In this document: piece after piece, positions 1 through 7,682 of the stretch
Numbering within the stretch: position 1 is the first letter of the stretch
Layout: every line of letters begins with the position of its first letter
IMG/VR virus record: IMGVR_UViG_2695420859_000007
Location: 1-7,682 of that record
Strand: one strand, 5' to 3'
Origin: a virus
Lineage: Duplodnaviria; Heunggongvirae; Uroviricota; Caudoviricetes
DNA length: 7,682 nucleotides
Made by a program: the position numbers and the translations under genes
Notes under the pieces: model-generated
The model's database searches: none
Told to the model about the DNA's origin: nothing
The model's input: the letters and a program-made list of their open reading frames with translations, nothing else

Positions 1-206
1 AGTGATAAACATCCGGCTTCTTCCACCATCGCACCGGACAGGCGACTATGAGGGGACAACGCCGCGCTCCGTTAACGCGGTAAACCCCGGTGTGTATCGT
101 TTTTGATTATCCCCGCACACTCGCGCAGAGGAGTCTCCCTGTCGGGCTGCGGTCTCTGTTAATGCAGGAATACGGCGACAATACCGCGCATGGATAATAA
201 GGTCGC

Positions 207-431
207 TCAACACACTGGCTGTAATGCAGCGGATACCATGCGGCATTTAGCGGCATTCATCGTACACTCCACGGTTAGCTCTTCATTCGTGGCATTCACC
301 TGAAAGGTCCGGGAGTGTAATTGCGTACATTTACCACTGAACGAACCTTCAACAAGAACACGACCACGCTGCAAAATACGGAACGGAATTGTTCCCTGAA
401 AAGGTTCTACGGTTACCCGTAATTTCTTCAT
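207..431 (-). CDS. Hypothetical 74-aa protein, translationally coupled to Rz
   Basis: Its ATG overlaps the Rz stop (ATGA), and GGAGGA lies 4 nt upstream. Translates as [74 protein letters not shown], with four Cys. I do not recognise it, and it is not Bor-like. Confidence 0.45.
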
Positions 432-922
432 GTATCCTCCGGATAATAAAAAGCCAGCTTAGTGCACTGAGTGCGGATATATTCCTGCGCCCCTTCCAGC
501 TGCTTCTGCATTGTCATCAACCGTTCTCTGAGGATGAAATAATCCCGTTCAGCGGTGTCTGCCAGTCGGGGGCCGGTTGCATTATCCACGCTGGAGGTGC
601 CGGTGGCTTCACGCACGGTACCGGAGCAGGTGGCGTTGATCCGCAGGCGCTTACGACCAGCGGCAACATCAGCGCGCAGAGTTTCATTTTCAGCTCTCGC
701 ATCGGCTAATTCCTTCGTGTATCTGGCATCAAGTGCAGCAACATCACGCTGGCGCTGCTGCATATCAGTAATGGTTGCATTTGCCTGCTCCAGCTCACTG
801 ACTTTTTTATCGCGCTGCTCTTTGTAGGTTATGGCGTTATCACGGTAATGATTCAGCCCCAGACTAAGCACACCACAGGCTACCAGCAGGACAATAATCA
901 CCACACACAGAACACGGTTCAT
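428..922 (-). CDS. Rz: Spanin inner-membrane subunit Rz (i-spanin)
   Basis: From the ATG at 922: [39 protein letters not shown]...[17 protein letters not shown]...[18 protein letters not shown], closely matching lambda Rz. SD GGTGGTGA upstream. The track's GTG start at 1006 is a spurious 5' extension. Confidence 0.9.
517..702 (-). CDS. Rz1: Spanin outer-membrane lipoprotein subunit Rz1 (o-spanin), embedded in the +1 frame of Rz
   Basis: [22 protein letters not shown]... with a lipobox (VSAC) and a Pro-rich body ([27 protein letters not shown]) matching lambda Rz1. Confidence 0.85.
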
Positions 923-923
923 A

Positions 924-1010
924 TCACCACCAACGGATTGCCCAGACCAGAACAGCAATGGCCACAATACGAATAGCAAATGCCATTGCCCGAATAAGTT
1001 CAGCACTCAT
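924..1010 (-). CDS. Small hydrophobic ORF-3 (28 aa), ending 1 nt before the Rz ATG
   Basis: Translates as [28 protein letters not shown]. It shares the motif RA[LM]AFAI[KR].VA[VI] with ORF-2. It sits in a third frame and may be a frameshifted fragment. Confidence 0.25.
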
Positions 1011-1021
1011 CTTTTTAAAGT

Positions 1022-1144
1022 TCACGATTTCAGCGCAATGACCAGTTTTGCCAGCCCATACAGCATCGGAGACACAGCAATACCAACAGCCACCCACTTA
1101 ATAGCAAAAGCCAGCGCTCTGCTGATGTCATCAGTCACTGTCAC
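1022..1144 (-). CDS. Small hydrophobic ORF-2 (about 40 codons, GTG start overlapping the ORF-1 stop)
   Basis: GTGA overlap with the ORF-1 stop. Translates as (M)TVTDDISRALAFAIKWVAVGIAVSPMLYGLAKLVIALKS*. It is the C-terminal part of track ORF 1022..1294. Confidence 0.3.
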   Translation of the reverse strand: MTVTDDISRALAFAIKWVAVGIAVSPMLYGLAKLVIALKS

Positions 1145-1272
1145 CCCAGCAGCCCCGACGAAGACAACATCACCCAGGCGAGGGACAGAAAAAGAGCAAC
1201 CAGCATTAGTGAAAATGAAATACCGACAATCACACACAGGACCTTTGCCGGCGTTATGAGTTTGTCTGACAT
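1141..1272 (-). CDS. Small hydrophobic ORF-1 (42 aa), single predicted TM
   Basis: ATG at 1272 preceded by a strong SD (AAGGGG, 5-nt spacer). Translates as MSDKLITPAKVLCVIVGISFSLMLVALFLSLAWVMLSSGLLG*. Absent from the ORF track because it is short. Confidence 0.4.
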   Translation of the reverse strand: MSDKLITPAKVLCVIVGISFSLMLVALFLSLAWVMLSSSGLLG

Positions 1273-1439
1273 AGCTACCCCTTAATTGCCACAATTAACT
1301 GGGATACTACCCATAAAAAAGGGATGCTCCAGACCAGCAAAAATTTCCAGTTTGGTAATTGACTAATCATGAGTCGCAACTCCCTAATCAGTTTGCTAAA
1401 ATCAATCAAGGCAGCCTCCCATAGCTTACTGCCATAAAA

Positions 1440-1476
1440 ACAAAACCCCGCTTGCTGCCAACAAACGGGGTTTTTA
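1440..1476. terminator. Hairpin with flanking A- and T-tracts (potentially bidirectional intrinsic terminator) downstream of R
   Basis: Plus strand AAAACCCCGcTTG-CTGCCAA-CAAaCGGGGTTTTT. On the minus strand it lies about 90 nt after the R stop. Confidence 0.5.
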
Positions 1477-1564
1477 CTTTTATTCACTTACGTTTCGCCA
1501 GTTCGCAGGATTTCGTGTTATCCGTCCGCCTTGGCCAACGTCATTTATTAGCAAAATATTCTGC

Positions 1565-2098
1565 TTATCTGTCGATTCCCCAGCACGCCAGCGCGCTCTC
1601 CTGGTCACGACGGGATACCTGACCGTAACAGTTATTTGAGCGAATACGGCAGTCTCTGCCACCGTCCTTAATCCACCAGCGAATCGCCTCACATGCTCCC
1701 CTGCGATCACCAGCATTAATTCGTCTGTAAAACGTCGACGGGAAACACTTACCGGGACCAATGTTGTACGGACAGAATGACGCGATCCCCGCTTTCTGGG
1801 GTTCGGTCAATGGCACTTTGATGTTTTTCTCCACCCATGCCAGCGCCTTATCACGTTCGATGGCGTTAACCTGGTCGCATTTCTCCTTCGACAACTTCAT
1901 GCCCGGGACGACAGGTTTACCATCCACCAGAATGGCACCGCGACAGATGGTCCAGATACCCGCGCCATCACGGTATGCCGTGGTGTGGTTACCTTCCTTT
2001 TCATCCAGAAACTGGTCGAGAATGTCAGGCGCAGGCGCACCAGCGGCAATCAGCGCCAGAACGGCAGCCGACAGGCCGTATTTGATTTTGGTGTTCAT
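1565..2098 (-). CDS. R: SAR endolysin, GH24 T4-lysozyme-like muramidase (Stx-phage R type)
   Basis: 177 aa. The N-terminal Ala/Gly-rich weakly hydrophobic segment (YGLSAAVLALIAAGAPA) is typical of a signal-anchor-release domain. The catalytic spacing E-x8-D-x5-T sits in EGNHTTAYRDGAGIWT. The rest matches lambdoid and Stx-phage lysozymes. Confidence 0.9.
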   Translation of the reverse strand: MNTKIKYGLSAAVLALIAAGAPAPDILDQFLDEKEGNHTTAYRDGAGIWTICRGAILVDGKPVVPGMKLSKEKCDQVNAIERDKALAWVEKNIKVPLTEPQKAGIASFCPYNIGPGKCFPSTFYRRINAGDRRGACEAIRWWIKDGGRDCRIRSNNCYGQVSRRDQESALACWGIDR

Positions 2099-2134
2099 GG
2101 ATATATTAAATATTCAGCCGCTGTCCCTGGCCCA

Positions 2135-3124
2135 CTAAATACGCACTTTAAGATAAGTCAGCCCCGGATGAAGCCAGTAAGCCGGCACTTTTTTAAAAGG
2201 TGGAGTATTAAAATCACGAAGAAGAGCCTCCCGCACAATTGCATCCTTATCAGCACCACTGGCCAGCGCTTCAATCTCAGCGGCTACCTGAAGATATCCC
2301 ATGCAACGGCCCACGCGCTTCATCAGCCCCTGCTTTTTATTGTTCTTCAGGTAATCAATGGCAAATTCAATGAGCTCCTCACTGTGCTGGTGCGATGGAG
2401 GTGTTACTTTCCCATTTTCTGAGATGGTTATTTTCCCGGCATCACCGGATACAACAAAGGATGGCCGGTTACACTCCCATTCCAGCTCACTGAAATTATC
2501 ATTATGAATACTGAAACACTCTGCGAGATTTCTGCTCATCACTTTCCGGCAATAATCGTAAAACGCAGCAAACTGCTCATCGCGGCGTTTTTTTTCAGGC
2601 TGCTGAAGATGCTCTTTCAACCATGAAGCGCAGCTTAGATTCGCCGCGCGATCAGGAATAGCTTCTTTCATTTCGTCTGCTGCAAGCACCTCATTTTTTG
2701 TTGGGGTGCTTTTTTTCAATTCAGCGATATAGCACTCCAGTTTTTCAATACGCGATTCAACATCATCTTTTTCTGACCGCAGTGTTGACGGCGGCATCTT
2801 CAGAGAACAAGTAATTCTTCCCGGTAGCTTTCCTTTGTAGGTTATCAATACATCCTGCGCATCTAAAATTACGGGGCGCTTTTCCGGTGACGGTTCATCC
2901 CCTTCGCATAACCCGGCAACAATATCCATGAAAAACTGCTTCGCCTGTTTTTTCGCCTCAGCTTCGTAGAACTCCAGCGTGGCACCTTCAGTACGGTCAA
3001 GACTAATCGCCACATCTGGCAACAACAGTGACGGATACCCACCAATTTCCAGTGCCACAGTAACAGTAATCTTATCCGGGTAATTATTTATCCCTTTAAC
3101 ACCCAGTTCGTATTTTTTCTTCAT
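2135..3124 (-). CDS. Hypothetical protein, 329 aa, moron inserted between holin and endolysin; function unknown
   Basis: Long uninterrupted ORF on the operon strand. Its ATG lies 4 nt after the holin stop, with GGGGAG about 7 nt upstream. No signal peptide or TM segment. It has a charged, helical central region (SRIEKLECYIAELKK...EKKRRDEQFAAFYDY). I found no Walker, HNH or other motif I can trust. The DNA looks more AT-rich than the flanking lysis genes by eye. Confidence 0.7.
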   Translation of the reverse strand: MKKKYELGVKGINNYPDKITVTVALEIGGYPSLLLPDVAISLDRTEGATLEFYEAEAKKQAKQFFMDIVAGLCEGDEPSPEKRPVILDAQDVLITYKGKLPGRITCSLKMPPSTLRSEKDDVESRIEKLECYIAELKKSTPTKNEVLAADEMKEAIPDRAANLSCASWLKEHLQQPEKKRRDEQFAAFYDYCRKVMSRNLAECFSIHNDNFSELEWECNRPSFVVSGDAGKITISENGKVTPPSHQHSEELIEFAIDYLKNNKKQGLMKRVGRCMGYLQVAAEIEALASGADKDAIVREALLRDFNTPPFKKVPAYWLHPGLTYLKVRI

Positions 3125-3128
3125 CGCT

Positions 3129-3335
3129 TTACTCCCCCCGCGCCGCCTTACGACGGTCCTCCCTGATTTTGAAATACAGGTTAGTCAGATACGTCAGCAG
3201 GCCAAACAGCAGACTTCCCAGCACACCTATTGCCACCCACTGGGACGGAGAGACTTTGTCCAGCAGCTGCAGTAACCAGTATCCCGTCCCCACCGCTGAC
3301 GTGGTGTATGACACACCTGTTGTGATTTTTTCCAT
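3129..3335 (-). CDS. S: Holin, phage-21 S21-type pinholin (class II, two TM domains)
   Basis: 68 aa, [68 protein letters not shown]. This is near-identical in pattern to S21 (..[52 protein letters not shown]). Confidence 0.85.
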
Positions 3336-3380
3336 CTGATGTATGTCTCCGTCACCGCCGACAGAAAATGAAAGTAAAGA

Positions 3381-3416
3381 AAAACAAAAAAGCCGCCAGT
3401 GTCACCCACTGACGGC
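3381..3416 (-). terminator. Rho-independent terminator between nanS-p and the holin gene (minus-strand orientation)
   Basis: Minus strand GCCGTCAG-TGGGTGACA-CTGGCGGC followed by TTTTTTGTTTTT: an 8-bp stem with one G-U pair. Confidence 0.5.
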
Positions 3417-3580
3417 CAACTCCGGGAGCCGTGATTATGGCATTCAGGCTCTGCTAAAAATGCCAGATAACATTCCGGCCTCCCCTGATTCAGGTTATAA
3501 ATGACACAATATCTTGACAACATCCGTCACTATCTGTCAGAAAATGTACTGCCAGATATAAGTATCATGTGAAGTACATC

Positions 3581-3617
3581 TACCCGTTTTAGCCAGCGTC
3601 CTTCAGAGTGGGCGCTG
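3581..3617 (+). terminator. Rho-independent terminator oriented for the plus strand, abutting the nanS-p 3' end
   Basis: Plus strand AGCCAGCGtCC-TTCAGAGT-GGgCGCTGGCT followed by TTTTTTT. The minus-strand reading has no U-tract after the hairpin. Confidence 0.45.
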
Positions 3618-3627
3618 GCTTTTTTTA

Positions 3628-5412
3628 TTATGCTGCGGGTGCATTTATCTCCAGCACCAGACTTTCTATCTCAACGCCATACGCTGCATTTTTTGTAACA
3701 TCCGTCAGCGTCAGCGCATTCAGTCCCAGTGTCAGACTGTCTTTTATAACCTGGAATGCCGGGCCAGCCACTCCATTCAGTTTCGGAGTAACCGTGGCAC
3801 TGCCGGCGGTGAACACCAGCTCCAGCGTCTGCCAGTCGTTACCGTAATCGCCGAACTCCCCCAGCTTCGTGTTTCCGGCTTTCCTGTGATGCATCAGATT
3901 CACTCTGCCGTCAGTGGTCTGAGTGAAGTACGACATCAGGAACGGATTACCGGTACCCGTCATCGCCACACCATCAGGAACGGGAGCATCCGTATACAGA
4001 TAAATCCCCAGCCCGAACTGATTGTTGGTCAGTGCGCCTGACAGGCGGAACTTACAGGTCAGTCTGCCGCCCTGTGTCAGCAGGGTAATTGCGTCATCCA
4101 CCGGATGCGTCAGGGACCAGGTTTTATTGCTCTGCTTGGTGATCTTAAATACACCATCTGACAACTGAATTCCGCCATCCTTAATGCTCCAGCCCTGCGC
4201 AGCAGCCTCTCCGGCTGCCGGCAGCAGGGAGATTGTGCGAACGGACGTATCTGCAGACGGACCCGATGGCGTGTTGCCGCCGGGCGAGGGTTTGATTTCC
4301 GGTGCCTTACCACTGATGAAGGCTGAGGTGCGCCCGGCTGCGTTCAGAATAGCGGTTGCCAGACGATCCGGAATAATGCTCCTGCGCGCCCATGAACTGA
4401 AATGTGTCGGGCGGTTTGATGATACCTGGTTTCCATTCGTTCTCGATGCCGCACCGTAATATCCTGATGCCGGAATATCCGGATCTTCTGCCGGCGCGTT
4501 AGTGGCGGTATTGACACCGTTACCGTCTGTCATGAAGGGCACAAAATAAACGCCCTCACTCTCCCTGTTTTTATACCCGCCGTACACGGTGTCGTAACTG
4601 CCACCATGGCACTGCGCGTTAAACACGGAGAGGTCAGCACGAAACTGTGTCAGCATGGCTGTAAACAGCGCAGGTTGCTGTGCGTGGGTGGCGGCGCTCA
4701 TGTCAAACTCACCCTGCATCCAGCAGACGGCCAGCAGAACGTTTTTGGGATTTTTCTGCAATGCCGCTTTTGTGCGGGAAATCAGATCCTGATATAACGG
4801 CTTGCCCACCCCCCAGCGTGCCGAATCCTGACTGGCCCCCGTGGACTCGCTGAATGTCCCCTCCGCGCCCTGGGTAAATGCCGAACCACCACGACAGCAT
4901 GGTACCAGCAGGATCCCCGCGTTATTCGGGATATACGGGAGCAGTTTTTTGGCAATATGTAAACCCTGGCCGACACAGCCGTACTGCCCTTTGCTCAGGT
5001 CAGCCCTCGGATGATTCAGCGTACTCATATCCTGCACATCATGCAGACAGTGGTCAGCCGGAATAATATCGTTATATCTGCAGGCAGCCCCGCCCGGCGT
5101 CACTGTACTGCGGCGCGCCAGCTGTTTAATGCGCGGATCCGGAGCATCGTATGAATCCGGCAGCGGAAGCCCTTCACCGTAAGCCATGGCATTGGACTGC
5201 CCGGCCAGTACGATGACGTAGTACCACTCCGGCTCAGTTGCACCACTGACCACCACATCACCTTCTGCTGTAATCGCCTGCATCAGGGTATAAGGGGTTA
5301 TGGCCACCGGACTACCAAACGGCTGCCAGCCCTCTTTCAGTTTGTGTGTCAGCTTTTCCGCAAGGTCTGACGGCGACGCCGCCCTGACAACATCATAATG
5401 TTTAAATGTCAT
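3628..5412 (-). CDS. nanS-p: Prophage-encoded 9-O-acetyl-sialic acid esterase NanS-p (SGNH/DUF303-type esterase with a C-terminal lectin-like domain)
   Basis: 594 aa. The N-terminus MTFKHYDVVRAASPSDLAEKL and the esterase motif LAGQSNAM match the YjhS/NanS-p proteins found downstream of stx in Stx phages, as I recall them. The start has a good SD (GGGAGGA). Its position immediately upstream of S is the usual one. Confidence 0.85.
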   Translation of the reverse strand: MTFKHYDVVRAASPSDLAEKLTHKLKEGWQPFGSPVAITPYTLMQAITAEGDVVVSGATEPEWYYVIVLAGQSNAMAYGEGLPLPDSYDAPDPRIKQLARRSTVTPGGAACRYNDIIPADHCLHDVQDMSTLNHPRADLSKGQYGCVGQGLHIAKKLLPYIPNNAGILLVPCCRGGSAFTQGAEGTFSESTGASQDSARWGVGKPLYQDLISRTKAALQKNPKNVLLAVCWMQGEFDMSAATHAQQPALFTAMLTQFRADLSVFNAQCHGGSYDTVYGGYKNRESEGVYFVPFMTDGNGVNTATNAPAEDPDIPASGYYGAASRTNGNQVSSNRPTHFSSWARRSIIPDRLATAILNAAGRTSAFISGKAPEIKPSPGGNTPSGPSADTSVRTISLLPAAGEAAAQGWSIKDGGIQLSDGVFKITKQSNKTWSLTHPVDDAITLLTQGGRLTCKFRLSGALTNNQFGLGIYLYTDAPVPDGVAMTGTGNPFLMSYFTQTTDGRVNLMHHRKAGNTKLGEFGDYGNDWQTLELVFTAGSATVTPKLNGVAGPAFQVIKDSLTLGLNALTLTDVTKNAAYGVEIESLVLEINAPAA

Positions 5413-5444
5413 TATTCCTCCCGGCCGGGATAGTGTATTAAATC

Positions 5445-5491
5445 AGATATGGAGTGGGCTGTAGTCCGGAAGCCTGAATGACACACGGGGA
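5445..5491. repeat. Perfect 12-13 bp inverted repeat with 21-nt spacer in the nanS-p upstream region
   Basis: GGGCTGTAGTCC (5446..5457) and GGACTACAGCCC (5479..5490) are exact reverse complements. The repeat lies about 35-80 nt upstream of the nanS-p ATG and has no U-tract on either side. Confidence 0.6.
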
Positions 5492-5595
5492 CTACAGCCC
5501 AAGAAATGAAAAAAGGCCACGCAGTTGCGCAGCCTGATAAACCCTGGTTAAAATCCACACGATAACAACACAACAATATCAGTATCTCATGCTAT

Positions 5596-5621
5596 TGCCC
5601 GAACCCATTCGGGCATTTTTT
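5596..5621 (+). terminator. Rho-independent terminator (plus-strand orientation), convergent with the one at 5628..5651
   Basis: Plus strand TGCCCGAA-CCCA-TTCGGGCA followed by TTTTTT. Confidence 0.5.
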
Positions 5622-5627
5622 ACCCAT

Positions 5628-5651
5628 AAAAAAGCCCCTCCGGAGAGGGGC
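5628..5651 (-). terminator. Rho-independent terminator (minus-strand orientation)
   Basis: Minus strand GCCCCTC-TCCG-GAGGGGC followed by TTTTTTAT: a 7-bp GC-rich stem, 4-nt loop and U-tract. Confidence 0.55.
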
Positions 5652-5818
5652 ATGTTTGCATGCACATTCTTTTTCTTGCATGGTGCCGGGTGCCTCCCGG
5701 TGAATTCAGTATCAGCACCTGAATCCGCGATTATCACATATACCTGGTTGCTGATTGCCCCTCCGCACAGGGGGATTCACCATGCAGTAGTATTTTTAAT
5801 AAACAGTAAACAAAAAAA

Positions 5819-5986
5819 TCAAGCATTATGCAGGCTGTTTCTTTTTATCACCGGCCACAGCAATACCACAATGCCGCAGACCAGCACCCCATCCGCCAGC
5901 ACCGACATGATTCTGCTGGTGAAATCCACCATCACCACCAGAAACAGCAGGAGTGCAGCCACAGCCAGGCGCAGTTTTACCGTCAC
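5819..5986 (-). CDS. Small hydrophobic ORF (55 codons from GTG; possible internal ATG starts), two predicted TM segments
   Basis: Its GTG overlaps the TerB-remnant stop (GTGA). It translates as VTVKLRLAVAALLLFLVVMVDFTSRIMSVLADGVLVCGIVVLLWPVIKRNSLHNA*. There is no strong SD, so it could be a chance ORF. Confidence 0.2.
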   Translation of the reverse strand: MTVKLRLAVAALLLFLVVMVDFTSRIMSVLADGVLVCGIVVLLWPVIKRNSLHNA

Positions 5987-6443
5987 TGGTGATTCTCCAG
6001 ACGAAGACCCAGAACACCGGCAATCTCTTCCAGCACCTTGCGCTCTTCCGGCTCAATTTCGCCGTCTGCCTCCGCAATGGCCACCGCCACATCCAGCACA
6101 TCTTCCGCTTCACGCGTATCGTGTTTCACATCCTCGATCTCACGTAACGCCGCACGACGACCAATTTTAAAGTTCGTATCCAGCTGACCGATAATGGTTG
6201 CGCTAATCGCATTAATTTCTGACGTAAACGCGGACAGCGCAGGCTGATTACGCAGTACCTGTTCGATCTTCGCTTTCTAGGAAGCCTCACATTCACCATC
6301 TGCACAGGCCACCAGGTAGGCAGCATTAATAACCGCCTGTGCCAGATCGCGTTTCTCAAACTTTCCTTTTTCCGGTTAACGTGACACACCAATAACTCTT
6401 GTCGAAAAAGCCAGCAAGCTGAAAGACCGGTATTCACAACCAC
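5983..6443 (-). pseudogene. TerB-family (tellurite-resistance TerB-like) gene remnant, disrupted by an in-frame TAG and at least one frameshift
   Basis: The C-terminal ~97 codons are intact (KAKIEQVLRNQPALSAF...LDVAVAIAEADGEIEPEERKVLEEIAGVLGLRLENHQ*) and show the two TerB-like 'hydrophobic-ADGE' repeats. Upstream the frame is broken by TAG (plus-strand ctag near 6278), a TAA, and a frame change in the run ggaaaaaggaaag. The ORF track splits it into out-of-frame ORFs 6126..6443 and 5826..6113. Confidence 0.5.
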
Positions 6444-6480
6444 CAGCGCGTTTACTGTACTGGCGTGATTTCAGTCATAA

Positions 6481-6507
6481 AAAAACCCGCCTGGCGACGG
6501 GTGTAAA
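6481..6507 (-). terminator. Candidate tR'-like intrinsic terminator downstream of pR'
   Basis: Minus strand ACCCG-TCGCCAGG-CGGGT followed by TTTTTTT, about 45 nt downstream of the putative start. The stem is only 5 bp, so this is a modest terminator. Confidence 0.4.
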
Positions 6508-6529
6508 AAATCTTCTAACGTCAGGCATA

Positions 6530-6577
6530 AAACGCCCATCGTTAGGGCAAATTTACCACAGATTCGGGAAAAATCAA
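6530..6577 (-). promoter_or_regulatory. pR'-like late promoter with qut-like element
   Basis: Minus strand just after the Q stop reads TTGATT-(16 nt)-TAAATTTGCCCTAACGATGGGCG. This closely resembles lambda pR' (TTGACT...GGTAAATTTGACTCAACGATGGGTTAA), including the -10 TAAATT and the ACGATGGG start region. Confidence 0.6.
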
Positions 6578-6582
6578 CAAAG

Positions 6583-7404
6583 CTATCTGGTCACCTTTTT
6601 CAGTTGTTGTTCTGCCCATGCTTCTTCAATATCAAACTGCACCACCAGCGTATCGTAAAAACGTTTAACTGTTTTTTTCCATGTATCAAGAGATATGGCA
6701 TCGGTTACATTACATATGGCATTAAATGCCTCCGTTGAAGGTAATCTTTCATAGCCACGACCACCACAACGCTGGCAGTCTCTGATAACAGGCATACCAC
6801 GTTTTACCGACTCTTCACGATGAATGGCAACACCTCGCCCACGACAATCTTTACAGGCGGTGGAAACCTCCCCCTTCCCTCCACACTCCGGACAGGCAAC
6901 TTTTACCACCTCCCTGACTTTTTTCCATTCCTCCCAGTAAGACGGATACACGCCTTTTGTGCACTTTGCCCACACTGGCGGCTTACCATCCGGATACTGG
7001 ATCTTGTTTGTAAAAACCTCGCTTTCAATAAATTTTTTTCCGTGACAACAGGGGCACTGTTTTTTGCTCGCCGCGCTACGGGCATAATCTTCAAACGCAT
7101 ACGAAGCCATAATACGCATCACTGCCGGTTTTATTTCTGCCGGGAGTTTTCTTAACGCCGCCACGCGATCACACCGACTGAGTGCATATTCTGTCAGCAA
7201 TTCTGTTGCCCGCTCTCTGTCATTCATACTAATGCCCATTTTCCCAAGGAACGCAGAAAACCCCATCTCAGCCCAATTCTGTGTCATGCCCTGCGCAGCC
7301 ATCACATCAGTGATACTCAGCGTATCTTTCGACGTTGAGGCCGATGCATCAGTCAGGCCGGGGGATTTTGGGGAGTAGTATTTCGGTAAATCTTCCAGTT
7401 TCAT
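6583..7404 (-). CDS. Q: Late-gene antiterminator Q (lambda Q family, carrying an extra Cys-rich insertion)
   Basis: 273 aa. The N-terminus (MKLEDLPKYYSPKSPG...TDVMAAQGM) and C-terminus (YDTLVVQ...KKVTR) line up with lambda Q as I remember it. It has four CxxCxGxG motifs (CPCCHGKK, CPECGGKG, CKDCRGRG, CQRCGGRG). It sits directly downstream of rusA and upstream of a lambda pR'-like promoter. Confidence 0.8.
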   Translation of the reverse strand: MKLEDLPKYYSPKSPGLTDASASTSKDTLSITDVMAAQGMTQNWAEMGFSAFLGKMGISMNDRERATELLTEYALSRCDRVAALRKLPAEIKPAVMRIMASYAFEDYARSAASKKQCPCCHGKKFIESEVFTNKIQYPDGKPPVWAKCTKGVYPSYWEEWKKVREVVKVACPECGGKGEVSTACKDCRGRGVAIHREESVKRGMPVIRDCQRCGGRGYERLPSTEAFNAICNVTDAISLDTWKKTVKRFYDTLVVQFDIEEAWAEQQLKKVTR

Positions 7405-7682
7405 TTTTTGACCTGCCCTTCAAGCATTATGGGGTAAATCTTCACCCCCAGACGTCCACCAGATACTGGCTGAGCACGAACGATATTGATTTCATCAAAC
7501 TGCTCATCGTCCATTAGCAACCCCGCATGCGTCAGCGCATCCAGCGGCGCTTTCAGAATATTGTCCAAGTCACGGCGGCGCTTATCCGGTGGCTCGGCAA
7601 TAATCTTTATCGCCAGCCTTCCGGACAGGCTTAATTTCAGCCGCTGCTGGCGAACAATAAGCGCCACAGCCCGGCGATAACG
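7401..7682 (-). CDS. rusA: Holliday-junction resolvase RusA, partial (N-terminus lies beyond the window end)
   Basis: The translation contains the RusA signature PDKRRRDLDN...DALTHAG...DDEQ. The reading frame stays open to the window edge, so the GTG at 7667 in the ORF track is not the true start. Its stop overlaps the Q start (ATGA), the lambdoid rusA-Q arrangement. Confidence 0.75.
   Translation of the reverse strand, partial: RYRRAVALIVRQQRLKLSLSGRLAIKIIAEPPDKRRRDLDNILKAPLDALTHAGLLMDDEQFDEINIVRAQPVSGGRLGVKIYPIMLEGQVKK

Follow-up and report, generated by a model that had tools for sequence, protein, structure and literature searches.

A 74-codon gene downstream of the spanin gene Rz as a probable cargo gene of lambdoid prophages, with a predicted beta-sandwich product

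The window analyzed here is a stretch of 7,682 nucleotides (nt) from a virus of the class Caudoviricetes (positions 1 to 7,682 of IMG/VR record IMGVR_UViG_2695420859_000007), in which the lysis genes are all read on the minus strand. ORF74, a 74-codon open reading frame (ORF) at 207..431 on that strand, lies at the end of the i-spanin gene Rz. ORF74 is very probably a real cargo gene of the PHROG 2571 family. On balance, we favor the explanation that it is an accessory, moron-type cargo gene of lambdoid prophages with a product predicted to act as a binding module. The more specific proposal, that this product is a cytoplasmic, non-enzymatic module that modulates the host or its defenses, is put forward tentatively.

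ORF74 is protein-coding and is under purifying selection. The ratio of non-synonymous to synonymous substitution rates (dN/dS) was computed pairwise by the Nei-Gojobori method. The values lie between 0.21 and 0.51 in the frame of ORF74, and most other frames give about 1 or more. This does not hold for the near-identical pair formed by the window and locus L001, nor for the antisense frame that shares wobble positions with ORF74; a low dN/dS in such a frame is a known artefact. Alternative genes on the plus strand opposite ORF74 were considered and discarded, as only frames of 33–37 amino acids (aa) are found there and the low antisense ratios are confined to the wobble-sharing frame. No insertions or deletions separate ORF74 from four diverged copies, which share 97%, 83%, 76% and 74% of its nucleotides, and substitutions concentrate at third codon positions. 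Of 88 related loci, 85 retain the full 74-codon frame. The sequence-only reading had seen a passenger gene at this place, and the frame-specific dN/dS and the intact frames establish a genuine coding passenger that is co-oriented with the lysis genes.

Conservation extends beyond close relatives. Searched with a profile, a set of 1.84 billion representative proteins yielded 44 relatives with identities down to 25–40%, including proteins of about 75–80 aa at 25–40% identity that retain the same pattern of hydrophobic residues and strands and an SGK motif. The relatives in this identity range come from prophages of Salmonella, Yersinia and Xenorhabdus, and the N-terminal sequence MKKL is conserved among relatives. 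That ORF74 is spurious, and the spacer from Rz to the packaging genes non-coding and open by chance, is therefore hardly tenable: the frame is short and has no family in Pfam or NCBIfam, but it is contradicted as a chance frame by its selection, by amino-acid conservation that reaches other genera, by a confident structure model, and by the conserved MKKL N-terminus and Shine-Dalgarno sequence.

ORF74 had been taken for unannotated, a view contradicted by existing records. Over its first kilobase, the window shows 100% identity to Escherichia coli O39:NM F8704-2, in which RefSeq places the 'hypothetical protein' WP_000736383.1 at exactly the position of ORF74, and GenBank phage records also carry the gene as hypothetical. 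The protein matches PHROG 2571, a family without an assigned function in that database, with an E-value of 2.7e-28 and 100 bits over residues 1–73. Only positions 100–172 of the 291 positions of the profile are covered, whereas relative P0064 covers 1–291, so that ORF74 corresponds to the stand-alone central domain of PHROG 2571. In the full-length form (P0064 and P0140, 280–286 aa), this domain is flanked by a helical region at the N-terminus and an alpha/beta region at the C-terminus, both of which are missing from ORF74. The gene is already catalogued as a hypothetical protein of lambda-like prophages, and is common. Of 5426 complete E. coli genomes, 1244 (~23%) carry ORF74 DNA, nearly always on the chromosome and with as many as six copies in a genome; O157:H7 and ST131 strains are among the carriers, and the rows listed bear the annotation 'hypothetical protein'. 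By comparison, 4554 of the 5426 genomes match a 1-kb query that includes Rz.

The genomic contexts of the ORF74 family fall into two known cargo slots of the late operon, one after Rz and before cos, and one that extends from Q and the tRNA genes to the holin gene. In E. coli and Salmonella, close relatives always occupy the interval from Rz to the packaging genes, downstream of Rz and in its orientation, and the 280–286-aa form in phage PhiR46_1 is likewise downstream of Rz, with one gene between them, and before Nu1. Distant Salmonella relatives follow an antiterminator gene and a tRNA cluster and precede the holin gene, and the Xenorhabdus relative lies just upstream of the holin gene. The Yersinia relative is found in an early region near ParDE and Erf, distant from the lysis genes. 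The tRNA clusters (Met/Ile-like cat, Arg tct, Gly tcc) of the Salmonella loci L010 (4448-4678) and L014 (4227-4379) are located between the antiterminator gene and the ORF74 relative, an order that mirrors the Q-tRNA-stx layout of Shiga toxin (Stx) phages. There are no tRNA genes in the window.

Prophage Sp5 of strain Sakai shows how both slots may be filled. In its slot after Rz lies Bor, encoded on the opposite strand, in agreement with the lambda-type arrangement that the sequence-only reading had invoked for comparison, and stx2AB occupies the slot between Q and the holin gene. Bor is a lysogenic-conversion lipoprotein of lambda that is expressed in the lysogen. Bor and ORF74 share the inter-module slot directly after Rz and are both dispensable cargo; they differ in that Bor in Sp5 is on the opposite strand, while ORF74 reads in the direction of the late operon, has neither a signal peptide nor a lipobox, and is unrelated to Bor in sequence. 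In the same manner, the distant Salmonella relatives of ORF74 occupy the position of stx2AB in Sp5, and Q-dependent read-through is the expected mode of expression for the ORF74 family, as it is for cargo of the stx slot. Unlike cargo of the stx type, ORF74 shows no toxin similarity or secretion signal, and in the window it occupies the post-Rz slot instead.

Morons, in the sense of Hendrix and Juhala, are expected to be present in some and absent from other close phages at a module boundary. This is the case for ORF74, which is encoded by 26 phage records against 439 that match the 1-kb query, and is replaced by Bor in Sp5. The PHROG 2571 family as a whole is patchily distributed among enterobacterial phages. 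The GC content of ORF74 is 47.1%, lower than that of Rz (52.7%) and of the endolysin gene (54.7%); an antiterminator-like ORF (6583-7404) and the gene of a DUF1327 protein in the window are also at 46–48%. The slots, the patchy distribution and the replacement by Bor together describe the ORF74 family as cargo of two accessory slots of the late operon, with which the lower GC content may fit.

The junction with Rz was analyzed in detail, because ORF74 had been described as translationally coupled to the spanin gene. The overlap of the two genes in an ATGA is present in the window; a conserved coupling is not. In loci L001 and L005, Rz ends in ...TQCIN* or ...TQCIK* at a TAG located 26 nt before the ATG, which leaves a spacer of 23 nt. 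In the window, L002 and L003, the position of this TAG is occupied by CTG or CAG, and Rz extends over nine further codons to the TGA that overlaps the ATG. The overlap in the window is thus a consequence of the loss of the ancestral stop codon of Rz (TAG to CTG), and the Pfam and PHROG 13 matches to the Rz of the window both stop at the canonical terminus. Of the 88 loci, 53 have the overlapping TGA as the first stop of the Rz frame and 33 have the upstream TAG; the remaining two, from Yersinia, stop elsewhere. The 53 include L007-L009, in which the ORF74-family gene is 442 nt from the nearest Rz and is preceded only by a remnant of an Rz 3' end. As judged by this comparison, the overlap is derived and allele-specific, and is not a property of the gene. 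The extended Rz is the commoner allele among the sampled loci, and the nine-residue C-terminal extension therefore seems to be tolerated by the spanin.

A GGAG or GGGG Shine-Dalgarno sequence is found at the same distance from the start codon in every arrangement examined (L001-L003, L005 and L007-L009). A conserved hairpin that enforces coupling between Rz and ORF74 was rejected: predicted structures are not conserved, and no conserved or significant RNA hairpin occludes the ORF74 start (z from -1.6 to +1.1). Since the overlap is not conserved, the Shine-Dalgarno sequence is kept and no conserved hairpin is found, independent initiation is the conserved mode, and termination-reinitiation at the ATGA may be only an extra in alleles like that of the window. 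ORF74 would accordingly be translated from its own Shine-Dalgarno sequence, with reinitiation possibly adding to its expression in the window allele.

No promoter-like site was found upstream of ORF74 in the window, so that read-through of the late transcript is most likely, as the sequence-only reading had proposed in describing a gene that rides on the lysis transcript. ORF74 and the lysis genes would then share the Q-antiterminated late transcript, which would read through into ORF74. There is no convincing terminator after the window copy. A weak terminator-like hairpin of 5 bp (GGAACAATTCCGTTCC, then a T-rich stretch) lies within the gene at 380-395 on the minus strand (codons ~13–18), and the number of terminator-like hairpins in the ORF74 region does not clearly exceed the shuffled expectation.

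The position of ORF74 also raises the question of whether it belongs to the lysis machinery, as a cytoplasmic accessory factor that adjusts when or how efficiently holin, endolysin or spanin act and is kept at a fixed ratio to Rz by the ATGA. The family is found directly after Rz in E. coli, Salmonella and PhiR46_1, the long form included, and just upstream of the holin gene in Salmonella and Xenorhabdus, and the ATGA overlap is seen in 53 of the 88 loci. However, most phages with a closely related Rz have no ORF74, Sp5 has Bor in the slot, and the overlap is derived rather than conserved. ORF74 lacks membrane or periplasmic targeting, while spanins act in the envelope, and the Yersinia relative is in the early region, far from the lysis genes; the positions next to the lysis genes are known cargo slots as well. 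We consider a role in lysis improbable.

The sequence-only description of ORF74 as a 74-aa ORF with an ATGA overlap, a GGAGGA Shine-Dalgarno sequence and four cysteines is accurate in all these details, and the protein is, as that reading had noted, soluble-looking and unlike Bor. Its grand average of hydropathy is -0.06, with a peak 15-residue hydropathy of 0.8, and a scan of hydropathy and sequence detected no signal-peptide-like or transmembrane-like stretch and no lipobox. The protein thus has no transmembrane segment or lipoprotein signal of the kind present in holin, antiholin and spanin, and it has no Pfam match at E <= 1, Bor included. The AlphaFold2 model, obtained with a 17-sequence alignment, reached a mean predicted local distance difference test (pLDDT) score of 88.6 and a predicted template modeling (pTM) score of 0.73, and consists of six beta strands and one short helix. 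In the model of the 280-aa form, confidence is limited to the central domain, and this model was for that reason left out of the fold search.

The four cysteines (35, 56, 63 and 74) are present in the protein of the window, but are not a feature of the family. Among close relatives, C35 never varies and C56 hardly does, while C63 and C74 are limited to one sub-clade. Many close relatives have a C35-x-x-C38 pair, which is missing from the window allele. In the wider family the number of cysteines varies from zero to four and no cysteine column is conserved, which rules out a conserved metal-binding or redox set and leaves no functional signature in the cysteines. Nucleic-acid binding through a conserved charge was likewise rejected, as the net charge ranges from -5 to +6 and the pI from 4.9 to 9.8 across the family. 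The family alignment contains no invariant polar residues that point to catalysis.

Searches for homologues of known function were negative. The PADLOC hidden Markov models for defense systems gave no match for ORF74 or six relatives, a profile search of the PDB sequences returned only a chance match (E 0.58), and a Foldseek search of BFVD with the ORF74 model found nothing at E <= 0.001. A pattern scan of genome contigs, with one genome per species, gave 35 matches, none of which was confirmed, and Rfam had no match within positions 1-1200 of the window. The folds of CBM6/35/36, LecB-type lectins, the PNGase F domains and the tail-tip domains of lambda J resemble that of ORF74 at 6–17% identity, with Foldseek E-values all above 0.05; the likeness to small beta-sandwich binding modules is a resemblance of fold class only, in which ligand-binding residues cannot be mapped. 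Small single-domain phage proteins in accessory slots also include the counter-defense sponges and inhibitors of the Acb2/Tad1 type. ORF74 gave no sequence or fold match to these families in the searches of Pfam and BFVD, and the likeness is a lead from context. In the Xenorhabdus locus L016, an 80-aa gene after Rz (3699-3941), with a start that overlaps the end of Rz, has a weak match to the Pfam family Acb2_Tad1_hairpin; the ORF74 relative of this locus is the one upstream of the holin gene.

ORF74-like domains are joined to unrelated N- or C-terminal regions in relatives P0052, P0060, P0063 and P0064. As the domain joins unrelated regions and neither charge nor cysteines are conserved, binding rather than catalysis is tentatively proposed for ORF74. 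The protein would act in the cytoplasm of the induced cell, where it may bind a component of the host, of a competing phage or of a defense system; the lack of a transmembrane segment or lipobox argues against a part in the lysis machinery itself. In P0063, the domain follows a region with a weak match to Phage_Tail_Tip (E 0.0017), which is below the Pfam cutoff. The match would suit a virion- or tail-associated beta-sandwich, that is, a small structural or assembly accessory akin to the Ig-like or jelly-roll domains of tail tips. This role is quite unlikely for ORF74, as the gene lies apart from the morphogenesis block and near-identical phages can do without it, and the tail-tip match itself is sub-threshold.

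Two proteins join ORF74 or an ORF74-like domain to parts of other proteins. P0052 (181 aa, metagenomic/genomic) combines an N-terminal ORF74-like domain with a stretch homologous to residues ~114–204 of a 329-aa DUF1327-family protein encoded in the window (BLASTP E 2e-14). A kinship between ORF74 and this 329-aa protein was rejected (hhalign probability 0.2), and P0052 is a chimera, probably produced by recombination or a frameshift, that only joins the two families. P0002 (125 aa, on a 1.5-kb contig) carries the DUF1737 N-terminus of a SASA/NanS-p-type esterase followed by the full ORF74, which implies either a deletion from the start of the esterase gene to ORF74 (compare window 3628-5412, minus strand) or an assembly chimera.

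A PHROG 4280 gene of about 70 aa lies within 40–80 nt downstream of the ORF74-family gene in Xenorhabdus, in some E. coli and, for both slots, in Salmonella. All 16 IMG/VR loci retrieved with this partner have an ORF74-family gene directly upstream; the search used short peptide patterns, and its reach is limited to close relatives. A strong terminator-like hairpin follows the pair in three contexts, which reads as a moron-like trait of the relatives. The partner is not present in the window, in L001-L004, in the best 80 IMG/VR loci, in L012-L015 or in L017. The window ORF74 is thus the solo form, and is nonetheless under selection.

These observations admit a reading in which ORF74 is the solo remnant of a two-gene cassette, for example an exclusion, toxin-neutralizing or counter-defense pair, as an orphan or as a gene that is now independent. 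Every partner locus (the 16 in IMG/VR as well as L005/6, L010/11 and L016) has the ORF74-family gene directly upstream, across both slots and three genera; the partner is N-terminally truncated in L007-L009, with the loss of its first 15 codons, as expected of decay in progress; and the hairpin marks the end of the pair. The solo form is, however, far commoner, and is itself under purifying selection, which indicates that it functions without the partner. The partner family has no known function, and the pattern-based search covers close relatives only. We regard the remnant as an unlikely origin of ORF74. Similarly doubtful is the broader idea that the ORF74 family and the PHROG 4280 partner form an undescribed mobile two-gene cassette that moves between both late-operon slots and would act on induction against host defense or competing phages, with the common E. 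coli copy as its self-sufficient solo core.

Several points weigh against an accessory cargo gene with a binding product, the explanation that we prefer. No homologue of known function was detected in Pfam, NCBIfam, PADLOC, the PDB sequences or BFVD. An own promoter and terminator, the further mark of a moron, are not found around the window copy, which thus falls outside the strict definition of a moron. Expression from the late operon is unusual timing for a counter-defense factor, and five of the six contexts adjoin the lysis cassette, which could mean a role in lysis rather than a preference for these slots. Literature searches by accession, PHROG identifier and context found no paper that names ORF74, and a survey of the lysis cassettes of Stx phages does not mention the gene (PMC8136144).

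Table 1. Coordinates of ORF74, its expression signals, the overlapping spanin genes and the partner gene of relatives. Positions are those of the window unless a locus is named.
Feature	Position	Strand	Description
ORF74	207..431	-	Predicted all-beta sandwich, 74 aa, 8.3 kDa, pI 9.5; WP_000736383.1 in RefSeq
Shine-Dalgarno GGAGGA	435..440	-	3 nt (TAC) 5' of the ORF74 ATG
ATGA	428..431	-	ORF74 ATG (431-429) overlapping the Rz TGA (430-428)
Rz i-spanin	428..922	-	164 aa including the 9-residue extension; Pfam PF03245 (Phage_lysis) E 5.5e-51; PHROG 13 'Rz-like spanin' E 6e-77
Rz1 o-spanin lipoprotein frame	517..702	-	Embedded in Rz; lipobox LVVSAC read from the sequence
Nine extra Rz codons, LAFYYPEDT	431..457	-	Ancestral TAG reads CTG at 455-457
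PHROG 4280 partner	L005 4265-4471; L010/L011 5319-5534; L016 1736-1951; L099-L114		Motif DPDN-G-VLGW..VV...PW-L-GVYA

The window contains further features near the lysis genes. The interval between the endolysin gene and Rz (924-1500, minus strand) holds several short overlapping ORFs of 30–90 aa, some with hydrophobic stretches. RefSeq lists three small hypothetical proteins in this interval in F8704-2, and L001 and Sp5 have an antirepressor gene there instead. The 329-aa protein is encoded at 2135-3124 on the minus strand, on the 5' side of the endolysin gene, and combines a DUF1327/YdfR N-terminus (E 3.9e-41) with a long C-terminal region. Its 98%-identical copy in F8704-2 is marked as an incomplete pseudogene in RefSeq, and relatives of differing lengths are found in L005, L007 and L014.

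ORF74 leaves the current view of phage lysis unchanged, and is one of many uncharacterized cargo genes. The most useful by-product of the analysis is the pair formed by the ORF74-family gene and the PHROG 4280 gene in relatives. By its position, ORF74 should be made in bulk upon prophage induction, together with the lysis proteins and, in Stx phages, with Shiga toxin. Because it is small and confidently modeled, and because natural variants with and without the gene exist, ORF74 would be easy to study by knockout and pull-down.
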